Shown: positions 6,946 through 43,895 of the stretch, piece after piece
Position numbering within the stretch: the first letter of the stretch is position 1
How the letters are laid out: each line of letters begins with the position of its first letter
Assembly: GCA_051942165.1 (NCBI GenBank)
Contig: JAVECS010000017.1
Coordinates: 1 to 44,839, forward strand
Length of the DNA stretch: 44,839 bases
From: Circinaria calcarea
Taxonomy: Eukaryota
Direction of reading: 5' to 3'
The notes under the pieces: generated by a model
Told to the model about the DNA's origin: nothing
What the model saw: the letters and a program-made list of their open reading frames with translations, nothing else
Database searches by the model: none
Made by a program: the position numbers and the translations under genes

Positions 6946-7531
6946 GACGGTCGAGAGAGTGGCTGGGAGCCAGTAGTGACTATGAGAATTGATAATGACC
7001 GCTTTCGTGCCCGGGCAAGGATGGAACCAAATATGTGCAAGACAATGCAAAGGATATATGTTCCGAAAGGTAAAGGTAGAAACGGTTGATCAGATTCGAC
7101 CCTGAAGACCCCTTGCCAAGACTTGAGAAATACCTCGGAATCGAGATGGCAGGCACAACCACTCCGAGGACGGAACTATATAGTCCTTCCGTGCTCGCAA
7201 GTTCACGGTACAAGCAAAAATAACCACGGGGGGCCGCGGCCGTGTCGGTGGCGTCGCCATCGAGTTGTCAGGGTCAGCGGACAAGGGGACTGATAAAGGG
7301 GTAGGAGAGCTGCAAACGGCGAAACTAAAGGAACAGCCGCCACGAAAGCCGCAAAGTCATGAATAACCCGACAAGCCATAAAATCCAACCGTCAGGATAC
7401 GTTTGACTTTCTATGGACTTCCTTTCAGAACCAAGAACCTCAAAGACGACACAGGCTATCGCTCATCACCACCTAAAGCTCCAGACTCCCGACGCCAGAC
7501 CACACAGTTACCGTTAAACCCCCAGTGTTAA

Positions 7532-19168: not shown

Positions 19169-22044
19169 ATGGAAAGTCTTGAAAGCTTCAAGTCGTCCTT
19201 GTTAACTACTGTTACAGAACAATGCTCTCAATTTGATCGCGTCCTAAAAGAGGAGCTTGCCAAACGTAGGTTGACTTGAAGGTTTCATTACTTTCTGCTA
19301 TCGCCAATGTTGGGTTTTGCTAAGCTTGGCATACAGTTGAACAGCTACATGCAGTAAAACAGCAAAGATTACAGCAGGAGATTAGTTCATTGCAAAGTCG
19401 AGTCTCAAAATTAGGCGAATTAGAAAAACAAAATGTTGAATTACGCTCGAAAATAGAGAGAGCTGCTAAACGGATACGCAGTCCAAGCGATACACAGGTT
19501 CCGTCCTGTCAGTCTGAGAAAATTGGCTCAAAAGTTCTACCAGTCGAGCCTGGTCCTGCCAATTGTGCATACGAACCTGAAGACTTAGAGAAATCGCTCC
19601 AAGAGAATAAGAGGATTCTTGAATTGCTCGAGAAGGAAAAGGCTGAGGTTGCGAGGCTGTACAATGCACACGCAAGGTTGCAGAAGAGATCTCGGGTCCT
19701 CAAGGAAAGAGCCAAGGAACGGTCAGAGTATCACGACAGAACCTTAGCCAAAAGAAGACCTTTAATTGCCGGCCAACGGCATAATAGCGGCGAGTCCATA
19801 CTGCGCAGCGAAGGGGGGCTTCTGATACCGCACTCCCCAAGACTACCTCGGCCATCATCCTCCTTTAGTGAAGAGAATCCCGATACCCCCAAGCCAGAAA
19901 CCGCACTTCCCCTACTTCAACTCATCCCAGATCAACAGACACAAGATTGTAGGGAAGAAATTGTATGCTCTTCGGATCCTCAAGTTCTGGTTCTACCCAC
20001 CCCGGCACGAAATCCACAGGATATCAACAATGCTATTAAAGATTATCGCCATATCGATAAAGGCAATTCTTCGGAAACCTGCGATGATACTTGTGAGCAA
20101 CCACCACTCCCACCTCTTCCTCAACCGTGGACGCATCGCTCCAATGATATACTTGCATCTGTATTGGAAGATGACGAGTCAGATGTTCCCGTGGTCGTTT
20201 CTGAACGTTCTTTAAAACGGAAGAGACCCAATGCCCTCGAACTGCAGGAACTCCACTTACCTGGAGATGCCGAACATCAGATGGGTAGTGCCGGAAAGCC
20301 GTTCTGTGTGAAGAGCGAACATGGCTCGAGTAGCCCTATGATCGATAAAAATACTTCAGCCTTGGAGTACGCGCATGAAAGTCTTGATTTAGACGAAGTT
20401 GGAAGGAGAATTCTCACACCGAGAAAGAGAACGCGGCTACAACGACTCAAGACTGCATCGCAATCGGAAATGAGAAGGGCTCTGACCCTTGCACATTTAG
20501 GAGGAACAGAGGGGCCAATGAGCTCTGCTGCTTCCAGAGGCACGTCGGCAGGGGATATCGCGGACAGCGCAGCTGACCCCGGCACTAACGGTGTCCTATT
20601 TTCCCGCCCAGAGTTCTGCAACGAGTTAGCTACAAAGATTGCGCGGGAGATGTATGGAATGCTTCAATCTGGACTCGTATCAGAGACACCCGAAACGCAC
20701 TCTCGTCCTACGCGTTCGAGATTAGAGCTCCGAAATCTGCATAATCAAAAAGCACACGAAAGAGAAAGGCGGTGTGCGCAGAAACAACCAGAGCAGGTCA
20801 GACATGGCATAAGTCGACGATTAAAGCGGACTGTAGATGGGGACCTTCGGGAACGAGCCCGCAGTGCACCGATCGATGCTACCAGCTCTGAGACTAGGCA
20901 AACGAGGCTGGATGTGGATGCAGGGAAACCTCGTCTTCCTCCTTTGCATCCTAAAACCCCCAATGCTCGAATTCTGCCGCGGACGCATGATTTTAAGTTT
21001 ACGTCCAAACACTATGTATCAAAGCAGCGGAAAGACCAAGACCATGCCACAGCACGATACATTGACATCACTGAAGATAGGGAGGACAATAACTCGATAC
21101 TTAAGGCTCGGTCTCCGCACTCCACGGTGTTCAATGTGGACGACAGCGTAAGAACAGACAAGGTCAAAACTCCAAGAGCAGCAGACATGCATTATCGATT
21201 GAACAACCTCTTAACAGAACCGTCCCCAGAAACGCCAATGTTATTGTCCCTAAATGGACTAGGAAAGATTACAGAGCTACAACATACGCCCAAGACGCCT
21301 CTTCCTGGTGAGGTGCTCGCAGTAAAGAAAGGCTCGTTGATCTCAAAGGAAAATCTGCTGAGAACCACGCCCGCCTCTGTAGTGAAGAACTCGCCTCGAC
21401 ATCTTACGATGACTCATATGAATGGCACTGGCATTGGCCAGAAGCATACATCAGAAGGGACCCCGGGAATTGCCACGCCTGAGCATGAACCTTTGAGGGC
21501 TCAGCCGCTCCACCGTCTCCGCCTTGATGACTTCAAGATCAATCCTAACCACAATCAAGGCAAGGATTTTGCCTTCAACGAAGTAGTGCGTAATCGTGAT
21601 CAGCGGATATGTCTGCCAAATTGCACAAAACCCGAGTGCTGTGGTGGCATGTTCCACAAAATAGTAGAAATGGGTGGTTGGACGGGTCGACAAACCCACG
21701 GACTCTGGGACTCTTCGCCCCTCGACGAGCGAGACGAGGATGACCGCCTGCTTCAAGATTATCTTGGTACTAGTTCCGCCAGCCTCGCACGCATGTCCGA
21801 GTTAGAAAGGGCGACTCTCCTAACTGAAGCGAAAGCTAAGAAACTCGCCAACGAGTACGGCCGGCACCGGCAAAACTTCGAACGGCCGTCAAGCCCGGCT
21901 GGGTTCTGGCGAACGGATATGCCGACGACGCAGGAAGCCGAGGCGGATCGGGAGCAGGCGAGGAAGGCGGAGAGAGTGAAGGTGGAGGAGAGGTATAGGG
22001 AGGCGTTGCGGGGGCACGGGAGGTGGAAATTTAGGGATGAGTAG
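19169..22044 (+). CDS. SAE2: Sae2/Ctp1/CtIP DNA-end resection factor
   Basis: N-terminal coiled coil (intron 19266-19336); C-terminal DFKINP...CLPNCTKPECCG...GRHR...PSSPAGFWRTDMPTTQE signature. Confidence 0.92.
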
Positions 22045-23045: not shown

Positions 23046-24585
23046 CTAAATACCGCCACGGCCCCTCCGCCATCCAGGATACTTCCGGTACTGGCGACTG
23101 TCGATGCCTGACAAAAGTGGGCAATCCAGGGCAGCCAGGCTCTTATTCAGCAAATCAGTCAGAGGCATTGTCGCTAATTTGACGTCCGAGTAAACTGAGC
23201 GTAAAACGCTGGGGCCCTCTACTTGAATGGACGCCAGAATGAAGCATAGGAGGTTATTGCCCTGAGTAAGAGTTCCACTCTTGTAGACGTCCTTTGTCAA
23301 TACCGCAAGGTCGACCGGAACAAAACTATTCGGTAAGCCAATGTTCCCACCCACCATAAGCAGGCGGGAATCTCTGATGCCATAGTAGAGTACATCCGCT
23401 ACAAAGGACTGCCACCGAGAAAATGAGCATACATAAGCTGGGCGTGATAGTTTGGAGTTCTTACTGCGATAGTGTATTCGGCTCCAACAGCCGTCTTGAA
23501 CCAGTTGTCCGGAATACGCTCGTGGCCAGGATTGTAGGTGAAGTTTCCGGATTCTCCAGAGACGGCGAAGAATGATTTAAAAGTCTCCTTGTCAAGGTAA
23601 CCTTCTGGGTATTCCTCCGACTTATTCGACATTATGGCCGCGGGGAGTTGATAGCCGGCGGGAGAGACAAACAGCCCAACAAAAGGAGGAGAGAAGAAAT
23701 ATCCGTTATTCATTAACGAGTCGTTAAGCCTGGCTTGCCGAAAGCTGAAAAGGGCATCGTACTGCTCGCGAGCCCCCTTTCTCTGGATCAGTAAGAAGAT
23801 TCTAGTTACGCCAACGACCGAGTAGGTAATCATACTAGATTCTCTGGGAGGGCATCATAATACTGTTGAAACTGTGAGAGCCTCAACGCATTGTTGTCCC
23901 CCCTGCCCTGATGTTAGTCTACTATTAGGGTAGTTGGAAGTGATTAGAATGTGACTTACGTGAGATATAGGTCTCCGCGGGTCGAAGAAGAATCAGCCTC
24001 GTACCTGTTATGAGAGCCAGTTAAGCCGCTGGGGGCCTTTTGGAGTCCCTGACCGCCTAAGATGTTGGGGCTAGCAGCAGCAGATCCACCAATGGAGAAT
24101 CCGGGGGTCTGAGACAAAGGACTGCCGCTAAACACGGTTCCATACAGGGCTAGGAACGTTCCGAGATCTGTTCCCATACCATATACTTATTGACATTAGT
24201 TTACGGGAAATGGCTTTTGGGACGTTTGCCACTAAATTAACTGACCTTTATTGACAGCCTCAATGAAGCTGGGAATTGTAGCCACTCCGTTATGCGGTAG
24301 GTACCCGTGGTTGGCCAGAGCATTCAGACCAGGGCAAGGACCTCGCTGGTCGCCGGCGGTAGGTGCGACGAAGGCATGTTCCCCTTTCGTGGACACCGCC
24401 TGCGCCTTGGGATCAAAGCCTAATCTCTTGTCGGTTCGACTCCATTTGTCAGGTTCGATCAATTGGAGGCAGCCCCCTTTCCCCGCTTCCTGCCCTGGGT
24501 AATGCGTGAGCGCGTCCGAAGCCGAACCAGGGAAAGCTAGTATAGTGGAAGCTCCGAGGACGAGCACGGCCCACGGCGCCTGCAT
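23046..24585 (-). CDS. Secreted heme-thiolate peroxidase / unspecific peroxygenase (long type)
   Basis: Signal peptide, proximal Cys motif RGPCPGLNALANHGYLPH, SHNRYEADSSSTRGD and GHERIPDNW. Four introns (24186-24245, 23903-23959, about 23777-23835, 23409-23464) give an intact frame. Confidence 0.9.
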
Positions 24586-26295
24586 AATCTTTATCATACT
24601 GCGTACCCGATGGCAATTCAAGTCGGAGTGATCGTCAAGGTGGACCTAGGTAAGAAAAGGATGGCTAGATGCCTTATGAGGTGTAAAGGAGGGATCGTAG
24701 AAACTTGTAAAGGTTCCCCGAACTGTGGTCGCGAGAATGTGTGATTCAAGATAAGGATGCGTGCTTTCAGGGCTCGCCTTGCTAGAGTCGATTCTCCAAT
24801 GCTTGCCGTTGCGCGATCACTTCGTGCTTCACGAGACTTCGGGACTGGCTGCGAGCGGGCGTCAAGTGAGTGAGAGCAGGTAGCGAGACGCTTTGGAACT
24901 GTTTAAGTGGTGATCGAGAAGGCCGGCAATTAGAGTCTTCACTGAGTGTATAAGAACTTCTGTGGATTGATCCGGCTTCGATGCATGGGAAGCTGAGGTG
25001 GGAACTCGAGGACGACAAGGTGGTACATAAGCTGAGGCAGCTCCCTCGGAAGCCATCCATCGAAGGGTGCCTACGCTCAGCTAGTGAAGGGCCTTCGACG
25101 GAGTGGAGGGTACTGCCCGGAGGATTGCTTTCGCCTTTGGCAGCGCTGTAGAGCCTGTGTTGCACCGAGACTGCCGACGGACGAGATTCGCGGCTGTCTG
25201 CATGGTGCTGATTATCTCGACTGTCCTTGGTCATTCAGTGTCCACCCTCAAATCCTCTGTGTTCAGGGAAGGCAGGTAGGAGTCAACGGGAAGACGAAGG
25301 AGACTTGTACGTGGGCTCCTCGCATACAGGAAATTACCGAGAAGGTGCCTGGCAGGGTCGATGGAGACGGTTCCTAACCACAGCTCTCAGGATCCATTCG
25401 GGGGTCTCTCACAGATCCGACCTGCATCCGCAAGACTCGAGGTGGGTGGATTGGCATGTATGACAAATTCGAGGCCGAAGCTGTACTCATTCGTATTGCT
25501 TCTCCCCTCGTCGCTTCCGTTTCGCCCTCTGGGCAAAATCGCAACGGACTAAGCGGCTACCCAAGACGTGTGACCTGGAAGGTGGCAAGCTCGATCTATT
25601 CCCCTCGCCATGTCATCGAATGATGCCACTTGGACCGAAGACGAGCGGGAAGCAGCCCCAGGATATGGCGGTGCAACATGAAAGGTATGGCCGGTTGGCT
25701 GCGAAGGTACGACGGGCAGGGTGAGCGTAGGATGGTTCTATGGTCCGTACGGATTGAACCAACATTTCAATCTATCGTGCATTCTTTCCCAAAACTCAAC
25801 CGTCACCTTCAAAGACCATGGAATCCGCGTGCGGGGAGACTCAACTGTAGCGTCAACGTGTCGATAAGAGGACCTTACATCTGCTTTGCCTCCCCGGCGT
25901 CTTGGCAGCAATTGCCCCAACGGCGCTATTCTACGTACAGCAGTCGAAGCAGTGACAAGAAAAAGGAGCAGGCGCTCACACGAGAACCTTTCCTTTCGAT
26001 GCTATGTATGACGGTGTCCATTCACACGGTACGATTCGAACATGTAACCATGAGCTAAGATAGCTACAGCACGACATTAGGTGATTTGACTACTATATGA
26101 CAACATTATCCTTCCCTCCTCCCTCGCTCCAGCATGAACTCACTCACGCTGATTGACCGTCATCCCGAGCGTCTGCCGCCCACTTCCGACCCGATCCCCT
26201 CGAGGCTCGCCAAGAAGCTCAAAGCAATGTTCGACTTTTGATACACTGATCTTAATACACACTCGGACTTTTGGGCCAAGGTTGGGAAGCCTGGA

Positions 26296-29159
26296 CTAGA
26301 AACCGAGCTTTTGGTAAAACAGTAAGTAGGCGACCTTATTGTCCTTGACGGAGTAGCGGGCCACCGGGGTCCTTTTGCCTGACGAAGGCGTAGGCGTTGC
26401 CGTCCCATTGACAACTCCCGACCACTTTCTGCTCCCAGTGGCGGAGTTAGGCGTGCTACCGTTAACCTGGCTCCAGCCCGTTTCGAACTCAACCTTCTCT
26501 TCATTGTCTTCGCGAACTTGATCGAAAACGCTGCTCATCAAGCTCTGATCATTCTTGTGCTGCTCCAGAGCAGCCGCTAAGATCTTCGGATCTTCTTCAC
26601 TCCCTCCTTCGGCAACATCCTCGCTGCGTATTCGGCGTATGATAGTATCATCAAGCCTTATCCACTCTCGACCCTCTTGACGACGTACATCCACCGTATA
26701 GTGACCACCGCTAGCGTTTTTGCCGTGGTGATACACCACACCGATTAGACGATATTTAGGCAAGCTTCCATGAGCTACCAGACCTCCTCGCCGATGTTGC
26801 GGGAAGACTTCTTTTGGGATTTCAAGCTCTAGTGGGTAGCCGACCTTCTTCCATATCTTCTGAGTGCCTCCAGTATTGTCATACTGGAATCGCTTAAGAT
26901 GGAGAATGAGGACAGGTGGAAGTGTCTCAATGAACACCTGTTTGGTTGCCGCAATGCCGGGCCCCCGAGGAGAATTGAAGTCACCGTGGAGGATTTCTGA
27001 TCTGGTCAGACCTTTCAGTGCATCCGTAATATTGCTAACTTGCGGCGACCCGATATCAAGTTGGAGTGGCTGATATGGTTCTAAGGTCACAGAATTCTTG
27101 GCACCCGGGACCCTTAGTTCTGACCGCAACTTTCCCCCGAAAATCTTTGTTATGGGCGAATCGGCATCGATGAGACCTGAGGACCGGGTGACAGCAGCCT
27201 TTTGACGAGGGCCAACTTCCAGCCATCCATTATTACCTCCAAGGTCCGCTTCACTTCCTGGAGATCTCGTTTCATCGAATACAAGTGACTCGGAGAGAGA
27301 ACTCTTTACAGTTGACTTCATAACCTTAGCGCATTCATCGTGCATCTCTTCCAAGAGAAATCCAAGGAACTCCTCGGCGTCTTGTTGGTGCCCGCGCTGC
27401 AATTGTTAGCAATAGACTGGGGCATGTTAGTACCGAGAAACGTACTCTCATGGTGGAGAATCGTGGTAAGCGCCGAATAACCTCATAAACAAAGTCGGGT
27501 ATGAACGCCTCTCCATAATCCTCAAGCTCACTATCCTGTAGCCGCATTCGCAGTTGCTCAACAGATTTTGCACAGTCAATCACAGGAAATTCTCTTATAA
27601 ACATGATCCTAGAGTACCTTAGCTCACTGGCTATATTGCTGATGAGTTTGTCGGACCAGTACTCACATTGCGTCCATCAAGGGAGTCTCACTTTTAAAAC
27701 TGTGAGCAGCTTGCTTACCGACCTTATCTAAGAAATTGTAAAAGGGAACGCAAAATACCAAGACCTGTAGAATCTAGACGACATGTCAGTAACTGAAATC
27801 TTGAATATAAATCAAGATACATTACCGAGTTCATATAACACATGTTGCCGGTATTAACAAGTCCTCTTGGCTTCAAGAAGGCAAGACGGTTTTCTGATTC
27901 GCTGTCTTGAACACTGAACGAATTTAGTGCATCAGCGATAGAGCAAGCTTTATTGATATGAACTTCGCCGGGTACAGCTCCGGTGGCATCGCTAACAGGA
28001 TTGACGAATGGCAAAGCCGCTGGGGCTCTTATTTTAAGTAGGTCGGCCCAAGACTTTGGAGTTGTTTTTGCCTGTGGTGACGATGCTTTAGACGTTTGTT
28101 CGGAGTCGATAGGCACTTCGTCATCTTCAGCACCCACCCGCTGAGTCACCTCTAGTGCGTTCTTGAGATGATCTGCATTATTAGGCGGTTCTAGGATCTT
28201 CGCTTTCTCGGAAATAACGCTGACTGACTGCCGCTTTGATGAGCGTGAGAGAGACGGAATGTTCGGTACAATAGGCACAACAGGTACAATCTTAGCAGGT
28301 TGACGATTCCCGACTTTGGTATCCGAACTCGGTAAAGGTCTGGACTGTTGGGATGATGCAACCACCGAAGAAGGCGTTGTAGGTTGCGACGACTCGGCCT
28401 CAGACGGAGCTTTGGATGTAATTGGGGTGGCAGAGCCAGACGGCTCCAGTGTAGCTATAGGCTTACCAGACGGCTTAGGAGTTTCTGTTTTGGATGACGA
28501 CTCTAATTCCTGGGTATCCTTTGCCGCCGGAGGATCAATACGTGAAGGCAATTCCAAAGGTGAACTCGAGGGCTGGGGCCGAGGCCGGCGACGGCGCCTT
28601 CTCGACGCTGTTTTCGGGAAATCTGCTTCAGACACGGAGTACCAAGGTAACTGCAGTCGATCAGCGCTGTATTCACAAACGGTGCAGCCATTGGAGCAGC
28701 CTAACTTACTGGAGGATAATATGGCATACGCCGTGTTACCGGAGGAGGTGCGGGCGGTGGTGACGGACGATTTCGCGTAACCGTAGATGGCGAGGGGGAA
28801 TGCCTGATGCCAGGAGGAAGAGGAGGAGGGGAGAGCATTCGAGATCTATCAGACGACGAGTATGGCGCGTGCTGAGGATTCGGTCTGTGCAACATCGGAG
28901 CAGCGTTGTGCATCATGGGATATTGCGCAGCTACTGTCGAGGGATACTGTTGATATTGTCGAGGCATCGGAGCCTGCATGGAGTTATGGTACCACTGGGG
29001 GTTCGGCTGAGGGTGAAAGTGCTGGGCGACGGCGTGCTGGTGTTGGTGGTGGTAATGATAGGCATGTGGATATGGGGATTGTGATGGCGACGGCGTATAA
29101 GGCATTTCATGCGGCCTCCGACTTGTCTGAGTCATCGAGGGGATGTGAGGATTCATCAT
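26296..29159 (-). CDS. UBP3: Ubiquitin carboxyl-terminal hydrolase Ubp3/USP10
   Basis: Cys box GLVNTGNMCYMNS, QQDAEEFL, LILHLKRF, His box HHGKNASGGHY and AYLLFYQ. N-terminal LPWYSV and PKSWADL motifs typical of Ubp3. Introns 28651-28709, 27774-27825, 27609-27666 and 27397-27445. Confidence 0.92.
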
Positions 29160-29722
29160 ATCAGCTTCTGCTTCGAGGAAGCCCACATCGGCGGAGAGAT
29201 GTTTTTGTTAACTTATTCTAGGTATATCGATGCACACACGGCTGTTGGGCAGATGCGCTGGTCTCTTCGTCTCAGTTGAGATCACAGCTCTCCTCTGCTG
29301 GTTCTAAAGCCGTTCTGCAGAGCGACGCTGCCGTGACTCCAATATTCTAGGACCACAAATTGGGGGAAACGAGCAGTACATGTCCCTCTGTCGAAGATAA
29401 ATTCGCGGTCGGTGCTACTTTACGGCGTGCCGGAGTATAACGCTGGCGAGCTGTAGGGGTTAGCGTCACGCTAGCATGACTCCCCACTCGAACTCGAGTA
29501 TCATAAGGTGTGACTCCCTTGTCCTCCGGATCTTCAGAGTACAACGGTCTCTTCTTCTTCCTCCTCCTCCTCCTCCTCCTTCTAGGGAGGTGGTCTCACA
29601 CTTGACTAACCTTTTGACAGCGGCGAAAGACCGCAATCTAGTGTTGGTGGAAGTTAAGATTCTCCTCAGCCAGCCTGGAGAGCTCGAGTTACGAGCTTAT
29701 CGCGCTGGACGCCCCTCTCGAT
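29160..29722. promoter_or_regulatory. Divergent (probable bidirectional) promoter between UBP3 and MAG2, with a (CTT)/(CCT)n tract and a probable 5'UTR intron ending at 29620
   Basis: Head-to-head ATGs 563 bp apart; CCT repeat about 29551-29582; branch ACTAAC 29605-29610 followed by ACAG at 29617-29620. Confidence 0.65.
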
Positions 29723-32138
29723 ATGTCATCGAACACGGCCATCTCATTGGCAGCGTCCAAGGCCTCGAATTCCACCCCTCAGCTAATTTCGCCCGCACAG
29801 TCCCAAGCTCCTTCATCGATAGGGCAAGATGGCCCCTCACAGAGGCGAAGTGGGAGCTCGGGCAACTTTGCAAGAACCGCCATGGCTGCAGCCAGAAACA
29901 ATCAATCTTCCCGAAAGCAGCACAAGACTCAAAGACGAGCCAGACTTGCGGATGAGGATACTGCTGCTGAATCAGTAGGCGCCTGCAGGGTTGATTTGAT
30001 TATACCACTTTTAACGAGCTAACTGGGCATACCCGCAGGCAGCGATAAGGTCGACCAGCAGCCGCAAAGGTCAAACCTCTATAACGCACTTGATGAACTT
30101 TACACTTCCACCTCGACCTCAGAGCCATCCGCACTTAGGGTATAACCGTAACGCCCGTAGAAATCCCACATGGGGACTTGGCTCGGGCCACCATGCCGTT
30201 GACAAAGCCAGGTGAGATTAAACAAGCACATGAGATGATGCATCTCCTGATCCACTGCGCAGATACATTCATGCAAACTATCGTTTCATTGTCGACCCAC
30301 GGGGAGACTATCGTCCGCAGGCTATTGATGCCGACATACATTTGGATTGGAACAACGTTTTACAAATCCTTGCATCGGCTGAGTCTCAATCCACTAGTTG
30401 TCCGATTTGTTTGTCTATCCCAGTGGCCCCTCGGATGGCTAAATGTGGGCACATGTTCTGCTTGCCCTGTCTCATTCGGTACATGCATTCCACAGATGAA
30501 ACGAATCCAGTGCCTGAGAAGAAGGCGAGATGGAAGAAATGTCCCATCTGCTGGGATAGTATTTATGTTTCAGAGACACGACCTGTGCGTTGGTTCCTTG
30601 GACAGGAAGGTGAAGCCCCTCGGGAGGGTGGCGACGTTGTCTTACGGCTCATGATGAGGCAGGCAGGGAGTACACTTGCTTTGCCAAGAGATGGAGCTGA
30701 ATCCCTTTCCAAATCTGAGGCTATTCCATGGTATTATGCCGCGGAGGTGACAGACTATGCCCGCGTTATGAAGGGTGGCGAAGATTACATGATTGCCCAC
30801 TTCGACCGTGAAATCGAGGATTTACGTAGGCAGGAAAAGGAAGATGAAGTCATGTTTAGTGAAGAGGGTCAGTGGACAAAGAAGGCAGTTGCAATAATAC
30901 TTGAGGCAAGAGAGAAGCTTAAAGGAATTGGAAATCCGCCTCACCCCCTCCATAAGCCCGACGAGAGAAAGCTAAAACGTCCGCCAATTCAATTCAACGA
31001 GTCAGACGAGCAGGCTCCAGACTTTTACCTATTGCAACACGCCGTTAAGTCGGGACGTTCGCTCGCTGCAAATCCTAGAATAGCCCCGAACTCGGGCTCG
31101 ACTTCGTCTATTCCAGGCGTAATCGCTACCTCAGAATTGTCGTCACGAGCAATTGAACAGAACGAGAGATTACTCCTCGTTCCCCCAACTCCTCTTACTG
31201 GATCTTATGAACAAGATCCCGGAACTAGCATTCCGGTAAAGTCTAATACTCCTTTGCCGAAGGCTAACGGACTAGAACATCCGCCGTCAGGCGAACCAGC
31301 TTTCTTCTTTTATCAAGCCTTACTCCACTACTACTTATCCCCACTTGATATACGGATCCTTAAAGCAGCCTTTGGTGACTTCGCATCGTTTCCATCTACT
31401 ATCTTACCTCGGGTAGAGCGCGTTTCCACCGGCCATATCGTTGATGATGAGCTGCGGAAACGTGCCAAGTACTTAGCACATTTACCTTATGGGTGTGAAG
31501 TGGGATTTCTTGAATGCGACTGGACTGACACGGTTGTTCCGGAGGTGTTGGCTATGTTCAATGGGGAAATAGAGCGTCGTCGGAAGCGAAATCGGGAAAA
31601 GGAAATGCGTGAAGAGAAAGAGCGCGTAAGGGCGGAAAAAGAAGAAGATGATAACCGATGGGCCGCTGTGAGGAGGAAACGACCAAGCTTCCCAAAGGAC
31701 AAGGCCCCTGATTCAAGTTTTGCGTTACACGCAGAACCCGATGATTCGTTGGGTACTTCTTCATCGGTGGACTTGACAGCCGCCTCTTCCTCGCCACCTT
31801 GGTTATCATCATTAGTCCGTACGGGCTCGGCTTTCGCCTCTCTAGCCTCTCCCTCAACGAGTCCCGGCGCGCCCAGGACGGTCTGGGGAACGACCGCCAT
31901 AGCCTCTAGTTCACCTCCTTTACAGCCCGTAGGCCATGAGCCGGATTTGAACGACAACGATGGATGGCTCGAGGGCTGGGAACATGACCTGTGGGCGGAG
32001 GAGGATTTGATTTCTCGGTTCCAAGCCAACGCTGTTGGCGTTGGCAGCTCCCAATCGGGCGCATCAACGGGCAACAGCAAAAAGAAAAAGAATAAAAAGA
32101 TTATGCTCATGACAACAAACGCTCGGAGAGGTGCATGA
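29723..32138 (+). CDS. MAG2: C3HC4 RING E3 ligase Mag2/RNF10
   Basis: RKGQTSITHLMNF, DKARYIHANYRF, RING CPICL...KCGHMFCLPCLIRY...KCPIC, FFFYQ...YLSPLDIRILK, LRKRAKYLAHLP and a terminal KKKKNKKIMLMTT. Introns 29975-30038 and 30212-30262. Confidence 0.92.
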
Positions 32139-32771
32139 TGGCTCCTATATGGTGTTTAAGGTGTTGTACATGGCATGAGATACATGACCTGATTGATTGC
32201 ATTTATACTTGTACATAGCCCTGCACATTGTGCAGACAACAAGCAACTGATGCTTCCGCAATGATCCTTCTGGACAGCTAAACTTTTCGTGATGCAGGTA
32301 AGCAAGCATAGTGCGTTGTATGGAATACACAATGTCTGGAGGCTCCGTGACCCCTTCTGACCTGGGTTGGTCTCGATGTTATGACAGCGACCTCCGTGAA
32401 TTGGCGACCTTGTCCCGCGGTTGACCAAAAAAAAATGCCCACCGTATTCAATGACCTATTGTGGCAGTTCTGGCCACTAAGTTTGTGATGACTCTTCTAA
32501 CGTAGGCGATTACTTGCCGACAGGGACACTAAATCAAAGCTTCCGGGTTGCCATTTACTCGGTCTAAAAACAAAATATCGGAAATTGCGATTTGGCCGAA
32601 TTCAGTCACGTCGATCACATAATGGAATGCTCCGTATGTAATTTGCACTTTCGCGTGTTGGTCCACCCTTACTACATTGTTTTTCCATCTTCCGCTCGTT
32701 ACCTGTGATTCATCAACGTTTGCTTTGGAGTTTTCAGCGACGTGTCACACGATTGAAAGGGAAAGCCTAGC

Positions 32772-34628
32772 ATGACACAAACAAGATCACAGCTGGGCTT
32801 GACACCCAGGTATGCCGCTCCCAAGCTCCGATTCTCAACATTCAAAACCTTATGCCAAGGCAGGAAAACTGAGCATCCAGGATTTGTCGAAACCCCGGGG
32901 GCTTTCCGAAAGACAAGGTCCCGAAAATCAAACACCCCAGAGGTCAAGGATGCCCATCCGGACGTCGTTAGCACTTTCTCAGAGCCCCTGGAAGACCATG
33001 CTAAGGTACCGATAGCTATCACCCATGGAAATTTAAATGGCAGCATAATGGCAAATAGCAGCGCAAAGGCGAATGGGACGGTTAATGGAAATTTAAATGC
33101 GGCACGCAAAATCGACGGATGGGAGGAGGGTAAAGATCCTCGAGTGGACTATAGCGGTCATTTTGAGTTCGGTGGTTCACTAGGTGTCAGTGCCATGATG
33201 CTAGGGTTTCCTTGCCTTATGTACTACATGTGGATCGGGGCTACATACTACAATGGCCATTTACCTCTACCGGCAGAAGGGCAGAGTGTTCTGAATTTCT
33301 TCCAGCAGATGGTAAAGTTGGTTTATGAAGGCGCCTTTCCAACCGCCAAAGCCTGGGCAATCTATTGGACATTCTTTATCTTTGAGGCTACTTGCTATAT
33401 ACACCTTCCTGGTATTACTACCAAAGGAAAGCGGTTACTGCATGAAGGTGGCAAGCAGTTAACATATCATTGCTCTGGCATCTGGTCCTTCGCGGTTACC
33501 ATCCTAGTCATGGGTTCACTTCATCTCACCGGAGCCTTCAAACTTTATACGATTATAGACGAATTCGGCCCTCTCATGTCGGTCGCCATCATCTCTGGGT
33601 TTCTAGTATCATTTGTCGCTTATACCTCGGCTCTATATCGAGGTGCCGAACATCGAATGAGTGGCTATCCAATCTACGATTTCTTCATGGGGGCTGAGCT
33701 GAACCCGAGGATGTTCGGAATCCTCGATTTCAAGATGTTTTTCGAAGTTAGAATTCCCTGGTACATCTTGTTCATGATCTCATGCGGCGCAGCTGCACGG
33801 CAATACGAGCAGTTTGGGTGGGTGTCGGGCGAGATGATGTTCCTCGTGATGGCTCATTTCCTGTATGCTAACGCATGTTCGAAAGCCGAGGAATGTATCG
33901 TGACTACCTGGTAAGTGGCGTCAAATCAATGTAACAAGTACTCGATTGACCAGACCCTCAGGGATATGTACTATGAGAAATGGGGGTTCATGCTCATATT
34001 CTGGAACATGGCAGGCGTCCCGTTGACATACTGTCACTGCACCATTTACTTGGCCAACCACGCGCCTTCCGTTTATCACTGGAATCGGATTGCTCTGGTC
34101 TTACTCTACGCGTCGTACCTTTTTATGTACTGGGTTTGGGACACTGCAAACGCCCAGAAAAATAGATTCAGACACGAAGAACGGGGCACATTGATGAAAA
34201 GGAATGCGTTCCCTCAACTACCTTGGCAGAGTGTTAAAAACCCCAAAACGATCGAGACCAGAACAGGGGACTCTCTTCTTGTTGATGGATGGTGTATGTC
34301 TCTTTCCCCCTAACCTTGGGTTGCATTTCCCTGACTGTAACTAGATAAGTATGCGCGCAAAATAAACTACACAGCTGATCTCTTCTTTGCTCTGAGCTGG
34401 GGGTTAATCACCGGTTTCGACAGCCCCTTCCCATGGTTCTATCCCGCATTCTTTACCGTCATGATTGCCCACCGGGCATATCGCGATATCCAAAAGTGTC
34501 GAGCGAAATATGGAGAAGCATGGGATGAATATACAAGACGGGTCCCGTATTTGTTCATACCAGTGAGTCCTATTTCTCTCTCCCATTTCATATCTTGTGA
34601 GACTAACGAGTCACAGTATATAATTTAG
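32772..34628 (+). CDS. ERG4: Delta(24(28))-sterol reductase
   Basis: HFEFGG...[52 protein letters not shown] and [21 protein letters not shown]...VPYLFIPYII*. Introns 32810-32863, 33911-33961, 34294-34344 and 34563-34616. Confidence 0.93.
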
Positions 34629-34786: not shown

Positions 34787-36036
34787 ATGCTAATCAAGGA
34801 GACTTATAAAGATGTCGCCACGAAGGATGGCGGGGAGGGTACCATGCGTATGAGTTAACACAAGTGAATCGGACAGACCATCACGATTGATTCATTCAGG
34901 GATATACCTCTTTCACCCCACCATCCCCAATTATCCTCGAGCGCGCTTCCCGGGCGTCGTCGTCTTCAGTGAAATCTACCAAGGTCAGCCGCTCATTCGC
35001 TTCGATCGGATTCTGTATTTGCTCTTTGACGTCGAAGAGTGCTCATGTTGAGATGATGACAAGTCACTGGGCCCGTCCAACGGTTTGCCCGGCAGATAGC
35101 TGGTCAAGGCTACATTGTCGCCACGCCTTCCTCCTACCATGAATTCACCGGGCCTGAACCCCTCGCCTACGACGTCCCCGGCACCGATACCGGGAACCAA
35201 TACAAGATCAAGAAGGTACCTGGCTGCTCTTCCAGCCTCTATTACGAACAGGAAGGCTAATTTCCTTACGCTGGGGTACAGAAAGTCTCCGCCTACGACG
35301 AGGACGCCTCTCTCTCCGTCACCACTCTCCTCTCTCTTCCCACCTGCAATGGCCGCGTCGGCGCCACGGGAATGTGTCTCGGCGGGCATCTCGCGTATCG
35401 TTGCGCGCTCGACCGCCGCGTCAGCGCCGCGGTATGTTATTTCGCAACGGATATACACAGCCATAGCCTCGGGATGGGGAAGAAGGATGATTCCTTGGAG
35501 AGGGCGGGTGATATCAAAGGGGAGTTGACTATGGTAGGAGAAATCTGTCCTTATGCAGTCCCCTTGTGTGCCTTTTGGCTGCTGACCCATCGATGTTTGT
35601 CAACGTGCCAGCGTGTCTTATCCAGGTGGCTGTTAGAACAGTTGAGGAGGATTCCACAAGGAGAGCGGAAATCAGAGTGAAATGGCTGACAGGGTTGTGG
35701 TGGTTAGATCTTCGGCAAAAGGGACAATCATGTGCCACCGGAAGGCAGGGATTTGATCCGCAAGACACTGCACGAGAAAGGCGTGGTATTTAGCTTTTAC
35801 GAGGTTGCTTGGGCACAACGTAAGTACTCACGTTGCATAGGTTGCTTTGGAGGATGGGCTACTGACGCCGGCGAATCGCAGATGCATTCATCAGGGATGA
35901 ATTGAGCAAAGGGAGGTATGATCCGGCAATCTCCAGCGTCTGCTTCGAAATGATGCTGGAACTTTTCGGGAGGACGTTGAAACTGGATCTGGGGGCGAAA
36001 AGTAGCGAGGAGCTGGTTGTAGAGGATGTTTGTTAG
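34787..36036 (+). CDS. Dienelactone hydrolase family (carboxymethylenebutenolidase-like)
   Basis: FPGVVVFSEIYQVTGPV, nucleophile GATGMCLGGHL, IFGKRDNHVP and AQHAFIRDE. Introns 34848-34899, 34984-35063, 35216-35281, 35534-35707 and 35820-35881. Confidence 0.92.
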
Positions 36037-36573: not shown

Positions 36574-37613
36574 TTATCCCCCATCTCCGTACTTGTTCCA
36601 TAATTCTTGCATAATGGACACCGCTCCAGATCGGTAGCCACCTCCGAAGATTGCATGATGGTTAAGGTGGTGGTATCTGTATCTTGTTCGCACCATGTTC
36701 GGGATGAGGCCTAGACATGGACTTACAGCTCATACAGGCCGACTCTATCCTCGTATTCCGCCACCGGTTCAGACTTCGGACACAACGCATGGTATTCCTG
36801 GAGGAAAGAACCCCCGAAGCCGCCGAACATTTTCATAATCCCGAGTTCGCATTCGCTGTGGGAGTAAGAAGATGACGGATCAAAGACGACATCTTCAACA
36901 TCTTGACTACTCCCAATCTTCCCTTTCCCTTTGTTTCCACTCCATAAATCGCCGTGGATCACTACGGGCGTGATCCCTTTGCCACAGTCGAGAATTTCAT
37001 CCCCCAGTAGCTTTGGAACGACGGTCCGGGCGGTCCTCTCCACCATGGACCTCAGCTCAGCATCCTTTCCGTTTGTCCGCTCGCTTTTCTTCAGAATCGC
37101 AAGAAGCCTATTCTCGGCGTAGAATTCAGCCCAACTTTCCCGGTAGTCATTTGGCTGCGCCGAATCCCCACAGCAGGTCGTAACCGGAAAGCCGAACACC
37201 GGAGAGGAGTAACCTTCCGGTATGGGGGCAGGAGTGGTATGTAGCTTGGCGAGCTTAGCTGCGAGAGAAAGTCCCGAGCCTTTCCCGGTGGGCGCACGGG
37301 CTGAGAGATCGAAATAATCGGTAACGAGAAAGAAGCGTTCGGGAGGCTCCTCCATTTTGCCAAACGCGTACGCTCTGGGGCAAAGACTTGAGACGACAGC
37401 GTGAATGGCATTCAAAGAGAGATACTCGCCTTCGAACATGATGGCCGCATCGGTGCCGGGCCCCATCTTCAGGAAGTAGTGCTTTTCCGAGCCATCGCCC
37501 GAGGTGGTGGTGATCTTGGCCGTGGTAGAGAAAGCAGAGCCGCTCCGAGGGGCGATGCCGCTACTCGATGGATCCAGCGATAAGGCACGGACGATGGCAG
37601 GGTCCAGCATCAT
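36574..37613 (-). CDS. Fructosamine-3-kinase / ketosamine kinase family protein
   Basis: YFLK...MFEGE, LAKLH, FGFPVTTCCG, WAEFYAENRL, IHGDLWSGN, VFDPSSSYSHSECELG and LYELYHHLNH across intron 36677-36726. Confidence 0.92.
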
Positions 37614-38948
37614 GATTATAGAGAGCTCGATGGAAGCTCCGGGCGGTGAGCGGGTGTTGCACTCGTCAGACACGGCCTGGTCTCGCCCTCCTATCGAGAT
37701 ACGGTGTTGTTTTCTATCTGTCGGCAAGGAGGAGGATTATACTATCCCTGTTGTCTATTGACTTCAGGTCACCGCCGCGCCGAGTATCGAGCTGAGCCTG
37801 CAAGGGTACTTTGACAGTGTACACCCATCCGAATACCTTCTACTACGGTATCAGGCAAAACAGTCCCCAGCGTGGTTGATTCATACCCCCAGAAAGCTCA
37901 ACCACAACCGCATAAAAATCATGGTAAAGGAGGGGGCCATAATAAGCGCATGATCTGGAGTATGCCTACGTTTTTCTGAGAAATTTCAAGCGTGCGCTGT
38001 AATGCTGTCAAGATATCGCGCTAGGATTTATTTCGCCTGACACCATCGTACCATTCTTCCTTCCATTGGAATCTTACGAGTTCGCCTCAAACTGTAATAT
38101 ATTGTCGTGGCCTTCCCGGCCGATAAATACCTTCTATATCGAAGTTTATAACTCCGAGCCTTTGACAACAGGCTTGTGCGACAGCGAGTCAATCGTCTTT
38201 GCGATGATGAAGTCCAGCTACTGGCCTTGGGTACTAACCTTGTAGATGAAGTATTAATTTTTCAATTGATCGTGTCCGGGTGCTGCTCTCCTACCCCCGT
38301 GATTGCAAATCGCATGTCTGTTACAATTCTGAAGCCCAGAATCAAAATTTCCACAACTACGTTCTAATCACCTGAACACCCCACCGAATCTTATAAACGT
38401 TCATGCGATCTAGCCGATCAGTATCGATGTCATTTGGTCTCAAGGCAGGTCTGGAAGGGCGGTGCAACTATTAGGTACGGATCGGCAATCCTATAGAATC
38501 AACCGGAAAAGGGCTTCATCCAAGGACTTTCAACGTTGGTTCAACTCGGAGCACAGAACCAAGGCTATCTCGCGTTGGAGATGAGCAGGCGTCTCTTGGT
38601 CCCTATCGCCATAAGCCTATAGCATCCCGTCCGATTCATGTATCGAGTTCCTGCCAGTAAGAGAGAGAGTGTGCGCGTATATGTAGGCGTCGTCTAGATC
38701 AGAGTATGTACTCAAGTGCCAGCAGTACGCTGACGGCGGTTGGGCGGCTCGTAAGGCGTGTCGACCGGTTAGGATTGTTTGCAGGAGACGGACTGGTTTG
38801 GTACATTCTAATAATGAATATGCCCAGTAACACCTTCCACCCGTCCAATACCCACAAGCTCAGACATCCAGTCTTCTCAATTTGTAACCTCGCAGCCATT
38901 TTTACTGGCAACGCCAGAGCTATGCGGTGTTCTTACAGGTCGAATGCA

Positions 38949-41900
38949 TCATCGGAGCAGGTCCCTAATCTGATATAGCGCCGTCTTAGTCCTTTCCCGT
39001 ACATCGAGTTCAGAATCAGACTCCAGTTCTTCTAGCTTTTCATATATGCCAAGTTTTTTCAACTCGTACGCCCTCGACCTGCAATGGATCCGGTCCGACT
39101 GATCGTCCACCCAGGTCAGATTGATTACAAGCCAGGAACATGTCGCTCGGATCTCCTTGTTGGGATGGCTGAACAATGGCACCAGCAGGTTGAGCAGCTC
39201 ATGCTGCGACATGAGTAGTTGCCGATGTCGCGGTGAAGCTGCCGCAATGTGTACAATTACGTAGCACACTGCTTTGATGATCTCCGTCGGTGGTGGAATA
39301 TGCCGGAGAGCATTCTCGGATGACTTCCTGTCACGCCGGAAAAGGTCGGAAACCTTGGGCAACAGCCTGGCTGCAAGAATGCCAAAGAACTTGTCCTGTC
39401 CCAGCTCTCGAAATAGGTGATCAACCATATCAGCTGCTCCAGGACCGCAGATGAAGTTCTGGATGAAATTTAAAGCCTGCTCTTGTACGGCGATATCGTC
39501 TTTCCTTGCTTGTAGGCTGGCCTGTATCCCAGGGTCGTATCTGGTAGTCAAGCGCTTGCGCTCTTCGACACCTGCTCGCTTAAAGTCTAGATACGGAGCG
39601 GAAACAGTCTTAATTGGGACGTTTTCAGATCTGCTTAAAGCTCCAATGCTATCAATCATGTTGACTTCGTCTTCATCATCGTCCTCAATACCTTGCGAAC
39701 GTTCGTCGAACTCGTCTTCAACAGCATTTAGCAAATCAACTTGTTCCCCCGCGGCGTTCGGGGTACCCATGGCCATTGGTGCTCCATTGCCTGTGTCTCG
39801 ATCACCTCGAACTCCCAACATGTAGGACGTGTCTTCGATATCGTTACTAATGATTTGCTTCAACCAACCCGGTCCTAGTTCCTCTAAGCAGCTCATCTTT
39901 AAGGGATTGGAAGCCGTGTTGACGAGATGCTTGAGTCCCCAAACTGCATTCAACCTGAGCCTCGCGTTCGTTGAATGTGCATGTTCGCAAAGAATCTTGA
40001 GTATGCCAGCGTCGATCATCGTCTATGGTACATTAGTCGACAGCCGGGAAAGAAGTAGACGTACATCGGTTAGACATACCTCTCTCATGGGGCTGAATTC
40101 AAGCAGAAGATTGCAAACAACGGCGGTTGCCGCTATCTGTACTTCCACGTCTGCATGGCCGAGAAGAACCAATAAAGGCGCAGCTAGGCCAGCATCAATA
40201 AGACTAGTTCTCAAAGTGTTCACCGATCTTGATAGAGCCCTAGCAGCGCTACAAGCAGCCAGCAGAACAGGCGTTGGACTTGCAGGAGCTTGAGAGGTGG
40301 GTTTTACAGAATTATACGCATCCTTGGTAGAAGGCGTAAGTGAACATATTACGAATGGGACCACACCATTGTCAATTATGGCTTTCCGATACTCATCCTT
40401 TGCTGTTGCCATTGCAGCTAGCGCAATCAACACAGATTCTCTCATGCGTAAGACGTGATAAGCCGAGGGTGAAATACCGGACACCCCAAGTTTCGAAGAG
40501 CTAGGGATGTCGTGCGAATAAGTTTCATCAGGTTCTAGCGTATGCGGCCTCCATTGTGAAGAAGCAGAACTTGAAGGAATCGGATCGTAAGTTTGCTTTA
40601 ATAAGTGTGAGAGCTTCTTGATAGCTCCAGCTTCTACCGCTGCTTGTTGAAGTTGGACTTGGTCTTCGACGAGCATCGATAAAACCGCTGGAGCCTGCTC
40701 CATTATAAGCGACTCGGGATTCTGCAGAAGACTGTCGTCGTATGACGGAGGCGTATCACTCGAGATCTTAAACTCTTTATCAAGCATTCGAACCAGTAAG
40801 GGCACGAGAAGTAAGGCAAGACCGACCTCCCGTCGTGGATTTGCAAAGCCCATACGACAAAGTATGGTGAGAACCCAAGATGCCATTAGCCTTGTAATGC
40901 CATTTTCCGCCCGAACTACTTGAACAAGCCACGCAATCAAGGGGCTCTCGGCGCGCTCGGTCCCATAAGAGAAGTTCTGTAAATTTCCAAAAGACATCGA
41001 TTCTAACGCCGCGCTATAACCTCTACTACTCCGGTTGTTTGCTCTTCCCAGAGCACCAAGAGGTGGAAGATTCGGTGACTGAGGTGGGATATCTTTTTGA
41101 GGCGAGTTTGGCGGCGATGGCTGGTAGCCAGAGACAGGATTATGCAATCCATGAGTACCACTATAGGGAATAGCATGCGGTAGGGGTATAATTTCTCGAT
41201 GAACTTCGGATCCGGGAAATACCTCAGCAAACGCAGGTGCGCAGATGAACTGCTTTGTCCTGAGCTTTGATTTAGATATAATGACGCCAATAGCTTGCAA
41301 TATAGGTGACAGCCTTGATTTCGTGGTCGCAGGAAATATTGACAAACTAGAAATGTTATCTTTGCGAGGTGATGGGCTTCCCGTAGCAATGACAAAGGAT
41401 GCAATCTTGCCTGCCAATGCTTCCAAAACGCCTGCCCGCGCCAATAATGTACGCTGAACCTCTTCCCGACAAGTTTTTATTATCAGGGCCGCAGCTAGAG
41501 ATAACTGCTGTTGCACAATAAGGGCAGGAGATGTCTGATTCAGTACAGCGACAATGCTCGCAAGATGATGGTCGGTAAAAAGTAACTGCACAAAGCCATC
41601 TTCCACGGTATCTGTATACGGCTGTTCCAATAATAAAGAATCTGCAATACCATTCAAGGCCCTTAATGATCCCAGCACGAGTTGCGGGTGCGAGTCAGCC
41701 GGGTCCAGGATAGCAAGGAGCGGAGGAAGGACCGAGCCAGCTGTCAGCGGTGGTATATAGGCAGGACCCCCTACGTTTGTAAGCTATATGTAGCCTCAAC
41801 GAACAGTACATGACCTCGAGCTCTGAGAAGCTGTGTTACCTACCGTGCGCCAAGCTGGCCACAATGATTACCGCCTGCAAGCGAGCTTCTTCCTCCTCAC

Positions 41901-43360: not shown

Positions 43361-43895
43361 GGCTGCTAGAAACTTCCCTCAACTCTGGACTCGTAACGGC
43401 GTGCCGGCTGATGCATGTGTCCAAACAATCTCATACATGTGCTGATTAGAATCCATCCGACCAAAGTCTCCCCATAGTCGATTAACAGCCACGATGATAA
43501 TGACGGAGGATGCCCGGCAGGGCAGAGCCAAAGCCATCGGTCGCCGCCAAGACCCCGCCCCATCCAAGAGGGCTCGACTCGCCTACGATGTCAACCAGCG
43601 CAACGACGCTCAGAGGAAAGTCAATTACACGACTACTCGTGTCATCCCGAGTGACAACGCATCTCGCACTCGACATTCCCAACCACAGCAATACCACTAC
43701 TACTCCAACGGTACGTGGCAGCATCCACTGACGCTGCGAGAGTCTCGCTACTCCGATTTCGTCCCTTGTACATACGACGAACAAACCCTAATTACCCGCC
43801 TCTACAAATATGCTCGCACCCTCCTCTCGCAGAGCAACATCCAGTGCCTCACGCAGCGAAGCCACTCGAGCGCCGGAGGTCCTCGCGATATTGAG

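Follow-up and report, generated by a model that had tools for sequence, protein, structure and literature searches.

Why should the gene for an E3 ligase lie back to back with that of the deubiquitinase that reverses it? We explored this question in a window of 44,839 nt from the lichen-type fungus Circinaria calcarea (contig JAVECS010000017.1, forward strand), where a UBP3/USP10-type gene on the minus strand (ATG at 29159) and a MAG2/RNF10-type gene on the plus strand (ATG at 29723) diverge over 563 bp. A preliminary description had reported this arrangement, and its coordinates proved exact, with no gene between the two starts.

Mag2 is the yeast RNF10 orthologue and mono-ubiquitylates uS3 in 18S non-functional rRNA decay. 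Garshott reported that USP10 antagonises RNF10 on uS3/uS5. According to Jung (2017; PMC5704183), Ubp3 deubiquitinates Rps3/uS3, as is likewise stated by Garshott. The literature premise of the preliminary description is sound. For mammals, the USP10:RNF10 ratio has been proposed to set the threshold for condemning 40S subunits, which is the function that the preliminary description had proposed for the fungal pair. The same families act in mammalian initiation/40S quality control (RING E3 RNF10/Mag2, USP USP10/Ubp3); the human and yeast enzymes are biochemically documented, whereas the activity of the fungal enzymes described here is predicted from sequence.

Identity of the two genes

The UBP3-like gene occupies 26296..29159 (−) and encodes 881 aa in five exons (29159-28710, 28650-27826, 27773-27667, 27608-27446, and 27396-26296), which are separated by four GT-AG introns of 59, 52, 58 and 49 nt. 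The N-terminal part of the protein, about 430 aa long, is rich in P, Q and S and of low complexity, and the USP domain forms the C-terminal part. Pfam UCH (PF00443) matched exon 5 at 4e-33 over profile positions 87-248 of 254, and we take two stretches of the spliced translation to be the Cys-box and His-box of a USP (C19) catalytic domain. Matches among PDB sequences were to generic USPs only. The exon homologues, with 64-80% identity, carry names that point to UBP3/USP10 and not to another USP paralogue, though these names were transferred by annotators and are not experimental. They include ‘mRNA-binding ubiquitin-specific protease UBP3’ in A. clavatus and A. lucknowensis, ‘ubiquitin carboxyl-terminal hydrolase 10’ in several homologues, and ‘hydrolase 3’ in Diplodia and A. 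udagawae. The topology of the UBP3 tree matches the class phylogeny. We also sought a Bre5/G3BP-binding segment in exon 2 (275 aa), for which no PDB sequence matched at E ≤ 10 and no Pfam family was found; a short linear motif would escape such a search.

The MAG2-like gene (29723..32138, +) has three exons (29723-29974, 30039-30211, and 30263-32138), introns of 64 and 51 nt, and a product of 766 aa. Its RING was matched by zf-C3HC4 families at exon-3 residues 46-96 (3.5e-7 to 1.7e-6). We aligned 12 MAG2-family sequences, among them those of Lipomyces, Protomyces and Synchytrium, so that the alignment reaches Taphrinomycotina, Saccharomycotina and one chytrid. The Cys/His positions of the RING were invariant, and invariant columns were spread over the whole length, so the N-terminal block before the RING and the C-terminal block are conserved as well. 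BLASTP against ‘Mag2p [Sugiyamaella]’ gave 5e-74 over residues 1-463. Among the named relatives, P0303 is called ‘Mag2p’ and two chytrid proteins (P0325, P0376) are called ‘RING finger protein 10’, while the Eurotiales orthologues are named ‘RING-type E3 ubiquitin transferase MAG2’ in eight Aspergillus species, ‘(Rnf10)’ in two, and ‘RING finger protein P8B7.23’ in one (A. udagawae). SPBP8B7.23 of S. pombe is presumably the gene that PomBase names ‘rnf10’. One Atlas cluster of the family was automatically named ‘Alkylbase DNA N-glycosylase’, which we assume to be an old name derived from MAG2.

Relatives' names and family alignments therefore bear out the orthology that had been proposed for both genes. 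They support the minus-strand gene as a probable fungal orthologue of Ubp3/USP10 and the plus-strand gene as a probable Mag2/RNF10 orthologue of the uS3/uS5 ligase family. Spliced metatranscriptome contigs from a relative with 95-99% identity confirmed one intron in each gene (27397-27445 in UBP3 and 30212-30262 in MAG2), so both genes are transcribed and spliced in that relative. No contig covered 28751-29658, and neither the stretch between the genes nor their 5' ends were represented.

Retention of the pair across Pezizomycotina

We found the divergent pair, with UBP3 upstream on the opposite strand, in 26 of 29 evaluable metagenome lineages, whose classes were assigned from trees with named references: eight Lecanoromycetes, one Eurotiomycetes, nine Leotiomycetes and eight Dothideomycetes. 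Sordariomycetes, Pezizomycetes, Orbiliomycetes and Basidiomycota lay outside this class survey. Locus tags could be compared in 17 named genomes, and in 16 of them UBP3 and MAG2 carried consecutive tags. In Xylographa opegraphella the tags are 11 apart and on different contigs, and the pair is apparently broken.

The preliminary description would have been refuted if the adjacency had been limited to close relatives, or retained no better than flanking pairs such as MAG2-ERG4; neither was observed. The comparator, an ERG4/ERG24-family sterol reductase gene, is the downstream neighbour in the window (32772..34313, +, with a provisional 3' end; Pfam PF01222, 1.7e-70 and 8.8e-34). On the MAG2 tree, the UBP3-MAG2 pair changed twice and the MAG2-ERG4 adjacency seven times. 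Of 30 evaluable lineages, 11 had ERG4 as the next gene downstream of MAG2. It occurred somewhere in the retrieved flanks of 16 of 28 sequences, in all four classes and on either side of the pair, but it formed a divergent pair with neither gene. MAG2, UBP3 and ERG4 were the only genes common to the flanks of all four classes; the family-2 peroxidase that is the other neighbour of UBP3 in the window was present in none of 80 loci. In four Leotiomycete lineages the order was ERG4(−) UBP3(−) MAG2(+), which implies that both genes were turned round together in a single block. The head-to-head arrangement is retained in four to six Pezizomycotina classes, far above any flanking pair of the same loci, which served as the reference in place of a genome-wide background. 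Chance could yield one head-to-head pair, but it could not yield retention across classes.

The linkage is nevertheless dispensable, as shown by the breaks in two metagenome lineages, apparently in X. opegraphella, and in S. cerevisiae, where we take UBP3 and MAG2 to be unlinked and on different chromosomes. For S. pombe, the systematic names in the supplement of PMC2911108 run SPBP8B7.21 (ubp3),.22 (erd2) and.23 (a predicted E3). By these names alone, the two families fall within three consecutive names, two genes apart, as a likeness to the window; the difference is that erd2 separates the two, which precludes a common promoter there.

The preliminary description was not aware of any report of this linkage. 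Our literature search, which included RNF10-USP10 and Mag2 papers, found no description of it either.

The divergent region and its TGACTC element

The region between the two ATGs (29160-29722, 563 bp) is a putative shared regulatory region. An Rfam search of 28900-30000 gave no match at E ≤ 0.1 and a tRNA search of 26000-32500 gave none. The long ORFs in the gap are only frame shadows overlapping the 5' ends of the two genes. For 17 lineages (16 loci and the window) in which both N-termini could be aligned, the equivalent gaps measured 451-1986 bp. Of the 16 aligned loci, 14 had gaps of 451-1145 bp, whereas the gaps of the remaining two measured 1613 bp and 1986 bp. A Pfam scan of ORFs within the longer gaps matched none of 11. 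Divergent genes with nothing between them and starts less than about 1 kb apart have the structure of a bidirectional pair, and UBP3 and MAG2 are arranged in this way.

Three TGACTC elements are found in the MAG2 sense at 29334..29339, 29477..29482 (ATGACTCCCC) and 29511..29516 (GTGACTCCC), which lie 389, 246 and 212 nt, respectively, ahead of the MAG2 start codon. The ATG of the second opens an out-of-frame upstream ORF (29476-29955). Between these elements and the MAG2 start, a pyrimidine (CT) tract was read at 29548..29583 (+, MAG2 sense; flagged as a repeat), which may be a fungal core-promoter CT box. A C/T-rich flank after the motif was also seen across lineages.

In 18 of 27 lineages, the 600 nt that precede MAG2 held a sense TGACTC, whereas 500 null resamplings gave 5.4 lineages on average and 12 at most. 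The antisense motif occurred in only eight of the 27, so the strand bias is strong. The motif reached a density of 1.58 per kb, compared with 0.23 per kb in the rest of these loci, and its distance from MAG2 was 90-530 nt. By the site definitions in the literature, none of the 25 TGACTC instances had the high-affinity form TGACTCA. TGACTC(C/T) was the sole conserved cis-element found, and it is MAG2-proximal and MAG2-oriented. In lineage L014-16, where UBP3 has been lost, TGACTC is kept 179 nt upstream of MAG2, so MAG2 may be the only gene that the element serves. The second lineage that lacks UBP3 has it at 586 nt (L062/63) or not at all (L073). In these respects, TGACTC(C/T) behaves like an element of MAG2.

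Possible coupled expression and its alternatives

The back-to-back arrangement across fungal classes suggests that the expression of UBP3 and MAG2 may be coupled. Selection would hold both promoters together, and a shared nucleosome-free regulatory region would couple their transcription, so that the ratio of writer to eraser, which would set how readily a stalled 40S subunit is condemned, could stay stable as expression shifts. The best candidate input would be the conserved, oriented TGACTC(C/T) with the CT tract beside MAG2. If this element is a Gcn4/CpcA-type bZIP site, as it may be, the module would be connected with amino-acid starvation. The preliminary description had likewise suggested that one bidirectional promoter could fix the E3:DUB ratio. 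Whether the pair is an ancient one selected for coupled transcription through the shared region seems to us an evenly balanced question. The enzymes of yeast are like those of the window in being their orthologues by name and family alignment. Yeast Ubp3 is, however, a multi-substrate deubiquitinase with further roles on eS7, in ribophagy, in mitophagy and on sterol enzymes. With so many other substrates, a fixed ratio to Mag2 answers no obvious need, and this counts against the fixed-ratio idea.

The arrangement could also have been retained passively, because a short divergent gap is a small and fragile target in which any break harms one promoter or both; that the two products are functionally related would then be coincidental and coupling unneeded. 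Divergent pairs are generally better conserved in fungi than other orientations (Hurst 2002 and Kensche 2008, as cited by another paper), the gaps are short, the pair has been lost in at least two lineages without obvious consequence, and ERG4, which is not known to act in ribosome quality control, likewise stays in loose proximity. However, the pair spans four or more classes with ERG4 as the only other shared flanking gene, it was inverted as a block, and it is unbroken at gaps of 1.6-2.0 kb in some lineages. It is also improbable a priori that the partners should be the one E3 and the one deubiquitinase reported for the same ribosomal mark. We consider passive retention a serious explanation, but rather unlikely. 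Still less probable, in our judgement, are two back-to-back unidirectional promoters, with MAG2 using its own TGACTC and CT box, UBP3 a separate promoter, the ratio set post-transcriptionally, and adjacency meaning shared open chromatin at most. The proximity and sense bias of TGACTC towards MAG2 and its persistence in L014-16 agree with such an organisation, as does a TATA-like stretch that precedes the UBP3 ATG of the window by about 65 nt. It would leave unexplained why the two genes are kept together and were inverted jointly; moreover, genes that share a nucleosome-free region can be coupled in noise and expression even if they have no factor sites in common. The recurrence of ERG4 on either side of the pair in all four classes would fit a three-gene island ERG4-UBP3-MAG2, reflecting a link of Ubp3 to sterol/ER metabolism and not to ribosome quality control, and Ubp3 enhances proteasomal degradation of key sterol-homeostasis enzymes by the title of PMC8027567. 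We regard such an island as highly improbable, in that the position and partner of ERG4 shift so often, with seven changes, adjacency in 11 of 30 lineages and no divergent partnership.

UBP3-MAG2 joins the conserved divergent pairs whose two genes are linked in function. It resembles other conserved fungal divergent pairs in its head-to-head orientation, its short gap, and its retention over large distances above other neighbours, but it differs in that the partners are an E3 and the deubiquitinase reversing it; no such writer-eraser pair was found described in the literature searched. Coupled transcription through the shared region could be extended to a selected ribosome-surveillance module that dates at least from the ancestor of Pezizomycotina, in which the shared region holds the ratio and a TGACTC/CpcA-type input raises both genes in amino-acid starvation. 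The module would perhaps be as old as Ascomycota, because S. pombe ubp3 and P8B7.23 are two genes apart. This larger reading is doubtful at present. If it were true, general amino-acid control would be linked to 40S turnover.

Structure, transcripts and identity of the gene pair

The DNA of the window is fungal, with short GT-AG introns, and its nearest protein relatives are found in Xylographa, a genus of lichen-forming Lecanoromycetes (65–68% identity for the RING protein and 76–79% for the USP domain). Both gene models were assembled from open frames and splice signals. The UBP3-like gene runs on the minus strand from an ATG at 29159 to a stop at 26296 (five exons, 881 aa), and the MAG2-like gene runs on the plus strand from an ATG at 29723 to a stop at 32138 (three exons, 766 aa). 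Their start codons are 563 bp apart. The ORFs in this gap are solely frame shadows of the 5' ends of the two genes; an Rfam search of the gap gave no match at E ≤ 0.1, and a tRNA search found none. The preliminary description of two divergent genes with no gene between them was confirmed at these coordinates.

RNA evidence came from four metatranscriptome runs of one study, in which 6–10% of the sampled words were present and the contigs belonged to a 95–99% identical relative. UBP3 intron 4 (27397–27445) and MAG2 intron 2 (30212–30262) both appear as exact joints in these contigs, whose cover excludes 27616–29658 and everything beyond 31702. Because the contigs carry both intron joints, the two genes are transcribed and spliced in the relative. 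One low-depth contig joins 29974 to 30026, skipping 51 nt with GT..TG ends, where our model places a 64-nt MAG2 intron (29975–30038); with this joint a stop codon is reached in the window sequence. Alternative or unproductive splicing, strain variation or a mapping artefact could each account for it.

Exon 5 of the UBP3-like gene matches the Pfam UCH family (4e-33). The 120 best longer homologues of its protein all have E ≤ 2.9e-151 and 64–80% identity, and the names among them include 'mRNA-binding ubiquitin-specific protease UBP3', 'ubiquitin carboxyl-terminal hydrolase 10' and 'hydrolase 3'. The MAG2-like protein contains a C3HC4 RING, and its family is kept over the whole length in Pezizomycotina, Saccharomycotina, Taphrinomycotina and chytrids. 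A phmmer search with this protein found 'Mag2p [Sugiyamaella lignohabitans]' (BLASTP 5e-74, residues 1–463) and 'RING finger protein 10' in two chytrids. Orthologues in Eurotiales are named 'RING-type E3 ubiquitin transferase MAG2', '(Rnf10)' and 'uncharacterized RING finger protein P8B7.23'; such orthologue names are annotation transfers and non-experimental. Atlas cluster names were generic RING names plus one 'Alkylbase DNA N-glycosylase'. Sequence searches of the PDB returned generic RING and USP matches only, with no RNF10, Mag2, USP10 or Ubp3 catalytic-domain entry, and no match to the UBP3 N-terminal exon. Named relatives, domains and family conservation bear out the predicted identity of the pair as Ubp3/USP10 and Mag2/RNF10 orthologues.

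Reach and retention of the linkage

We scanned metagenome contigs with a MAG2 alignment, which matched 568 stretches, 215 of them confirmed relatives. We retrieved the best 80 of the 215 together with flanks of at most 10 kb per side and grouped them into 48 lineages at ≥95% nucleotide identity; 19 lineages with less than 3.5 kb upstream were left out, so that 29 were evaluable. A strong UBP3 match (500–1570 bits) lay upstream of MAG2 on the opposite strand in 26 of the 29. Trees with named references placed these in Lecanoromycetes (8), Eurotiomycetes (1, with a UBP3 91% identical to that of Thermoascus), Leotiomycetes (9) and Dothideomycetes (8). UBP3 was missing upstream of MAG2 in L014–16, L062–64 and L073. 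L014–16 are a Lecanoromycete lineage, and L062–64 and L073 form one Dothideomycete clade, so the three negatives represent two events. N-terminal UBP3-like matches (E ≤ 1e-3) upstream of MAG2 in seven short-flank clusters (L020, L024, L026, L036, L053, L060 and L077) were left uncounted as low-complexity sequence.

Named genomes supported the linkage independently: consecutive NCBI locus tags for the two genes were found in 16 of the 17 species in which both proteins have positional tags from one assembly, tags being informative on adjacency and silent on orientation. Nine of these species are among Lecanoromycetes, Candelariomycetes, Coniocybomycetes and Thelocarpon, and seven are Eurotiomycetes (Rasamsonia, Helicocarpus, Emergomyces and four Penicillium species). 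Only Xylographa opegraphella departed from this pattern: its MAG2 tag (MMC26_007479, on a 38.8-kb contig) and its UBP3 tag (MMC26_007468, on a 42.6-kb contig) differ by 11, and the two contigs differ in length. In this congener of pair-keeping species the two genes appear to be apart, owing either to a recent break or to an assembly artefact. In nine further species the two genes lie on contigs of equal length, which is evidence of a shared contig at most. With 26 of 29 lineages in four classes and 16 of 17 tagged species, the adjacency is not confined to close relatives. MAG2 family members are also present in Sordariomycetes, Pezizomycetes, Orbiliomycetes, Saccharomycotina and Basidiomycota, groups outside the metagenome and locus-tag counts.

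In S. pombe, the supplement of a deletion library lists SPBP8B7.21 as ubp3, SPBP8B7.22 as erd2 and SPBP8B7.23 as 'ubiquitin-protein ligase E3 (predicted)'. The last is tied to the MAG2 family because an orthologue in that family is named 'P8B7.23'. We take SPBP8B7.23 to be named rnf10 in PomBase, and UBP3 and MAG2 are presumably unlinked in S. cerevisiae.

The comparator named in advance was the adjacency of MAG2 and its 3' neighbour ERG4 (32772–34313, plus strand), a sterol C-24(28) reductase family gene. Of 30 evaluable lineages, only 11 had ERG4 immediately adjacent to MAG2. On the MAG2 tree, its state required 7 changes (12 adjacent including the window, 19 not), whereas that of UBP3-MAG2 required 2 (25 adjacent including the window, 3 not). 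UBP3-MAG2 is thus retained better than MAG2-ERG4, a comparison made against flanking genes and pairs at this locus. The family-2 peroxidase gene (23399–24645, minus) next to UBP3 on the side away from MAG2 had no counterpart in the best 80 loci. An all-against-all comparison of ORFs from 27 representative loci and the window showed that MAG2, UBP3 and ERG4 are the only genes common to the flanks of all four classes. Fungal divergent pairs are known, as a class, to be better retained.

Four Leotiomycete lineages (L013, L021–23, L031 and L051–52) have the order ERG4(−) UBP3(−) MAG2(+), for which the simplest reading is that the UBP3-MAG2 block was inverted as a unit. In each of the four classes ERG4 keeps a loose linkage to the pair, lying directly 3' of MAG2 or, following block inversion, past UBP3. 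The title of PMC8027567 links Ubp3 to the degradation of sterol enzymes.

Other Pfam-supported genes of the window are CDC50/LEM3 (7747–8856, minus), a SWIRM-domain protein (9974–11206, minus), a pof12-type F-box beta-propeller (17258–18802, minus), SAE2/CtIP (19324–22044, plus), a fructosamine kinase (36723–37736, minus), an Armadillo/HEAT-repeat protein (38949–41783, minus) and a Pho80-type cyclin (43446–44837, plus) that extends past the window end. Beyond ERG4 lies a dienelactone-hydrolase-family (DLH) gene (35261–35680, plus; Pfam DLH 4.3e-8, and 9.5e-11 in L063), of which a 204-aa ORF (34985–35599, minus) is an antisense shadow. Positions 6001–7000 have 66% G+C against about 50% elsewhere, and long ORFs overlap the stretch on each strand; one of these ORFs has weak metallopeptidase matches (Reprolysin_5 / Peptidase_M43). 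In L014–L016, MAG2 is flanked by homologues of the F-box and SAE2/CtIP genes, which is local reshuffling and not distant relocation. In L062, L063 and L073 the DLH gene is the new divergent neighbour of MAG2.

The intergenic region and the TGACTC element

The gap between the two 5' ends was 451–1145 bp in 14 of the 16 loci with both N-termini aligned, and 1613 and 1986 bp in the remaining two. The 11 longest ORFs within the longer gaps matched no Pfam family. We searched for strand-specific 6-mers within 600 nt upstream of MAG2 in 27 lineages, with 500 resamplings as the null. TGACTC occurred on the MAG2 sense strand in 18 of the 27 (null mean 5.4, null maximum 12; null maximum for any 6-mer, 16), and its density was 1.58 per kb upstream of MAG2 compared with 0.23 per kb in the rest of these loci. 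The window has copies at 29334, 29477 and 29511, with a CT tract (29548–29583) after the last. Three other k-mers, GAGACCAAGC, TGAGGCAAC and CGCCCCTC, were enriched at 8–9 of 27 and set aside; they may stem from one related clade or from unaligned coding sequence.

The classical Gcn4 core is described as TGACTC, or TGACTCT as in HIS3, and the high-affinity site as TGACTCA. Of 25 instances of TGACTC, 23 had C or T as the next base and none had A; therefore, the element corresponds to the classical core and not to the high-affinity TGACTCA or the filamentous-fungal CPRE. Among 17 further lineages, 11 had sense TGACTC, and three of the six misses had less than 180 nt of upstream DNA. The 11 include the L014–16 lineage, which has lost UBP3 and retains the motif 179 nt upstream of MAG2. 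In the second UBP3-less lineage, L062/63 have TGACTC at 586 nt and L073 lacks it. On these data TGACTC behaves as a MAG2 promoter element, and we regard it as a candidate for this role.

An upstream ATG within the second element (ATGACTCC) opens a 159-codon ORF (29476–29955, plus) that overlaps the MAG2 start out of frame. It would be a putative inhibitory uORF if the TSS lies upstream of its ATG.

Possible functional meaning of the pair

Published work describes Mag2 as the RNF10 orthologue that ubiquitylates uS3, and USP10 as the antagonist of RNF10 on uS3/uS5; in yeast, uS3 ubiquitylation is regulated by the USP10 and RNF10 orthologues, and Jung 2017 (PMC5704183) deals with Ubp3 and Rps3. 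RNF10/Mag2 and USP10/Ubp3 are reported to be opposing enzymes that decide on rescue or destruction of the stalled 40S subunit, and the RNF10/USP10 ratio has been proposed to set the threshold for its fate. The preliminary description suggested that one bidirectional promoter could fix the E3:DUB ratio. Such control would be consistent with the published ratio idea. However, the sole conserved element that we found favours MAG2, some lineages no longer have the linkage, and Ubp3 has many other substrates, all of which argue against it.

UBP3-MAG2 is a real and deeply conserved divergent pair of Ubp3/USP10 and Mag2/RNF10 orthologues. Conserved divergent pairs of functionally linked genes are already known, and it is a further example. 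Our literature search, which covered journals outside subscription, found no description of this linkage. Annotators of fungal genomes, in which the two genes often carry the label 'hypothetical', can use the linkage as a synteny marker for them. For the ribosome quality-control field, the pair offers a simple, genetically tractable system in which ratio control is directly testable, and its head-to-head order, kept in several fungal classes, adds independent genome-context evidence for the two enzymes acting as a unit.
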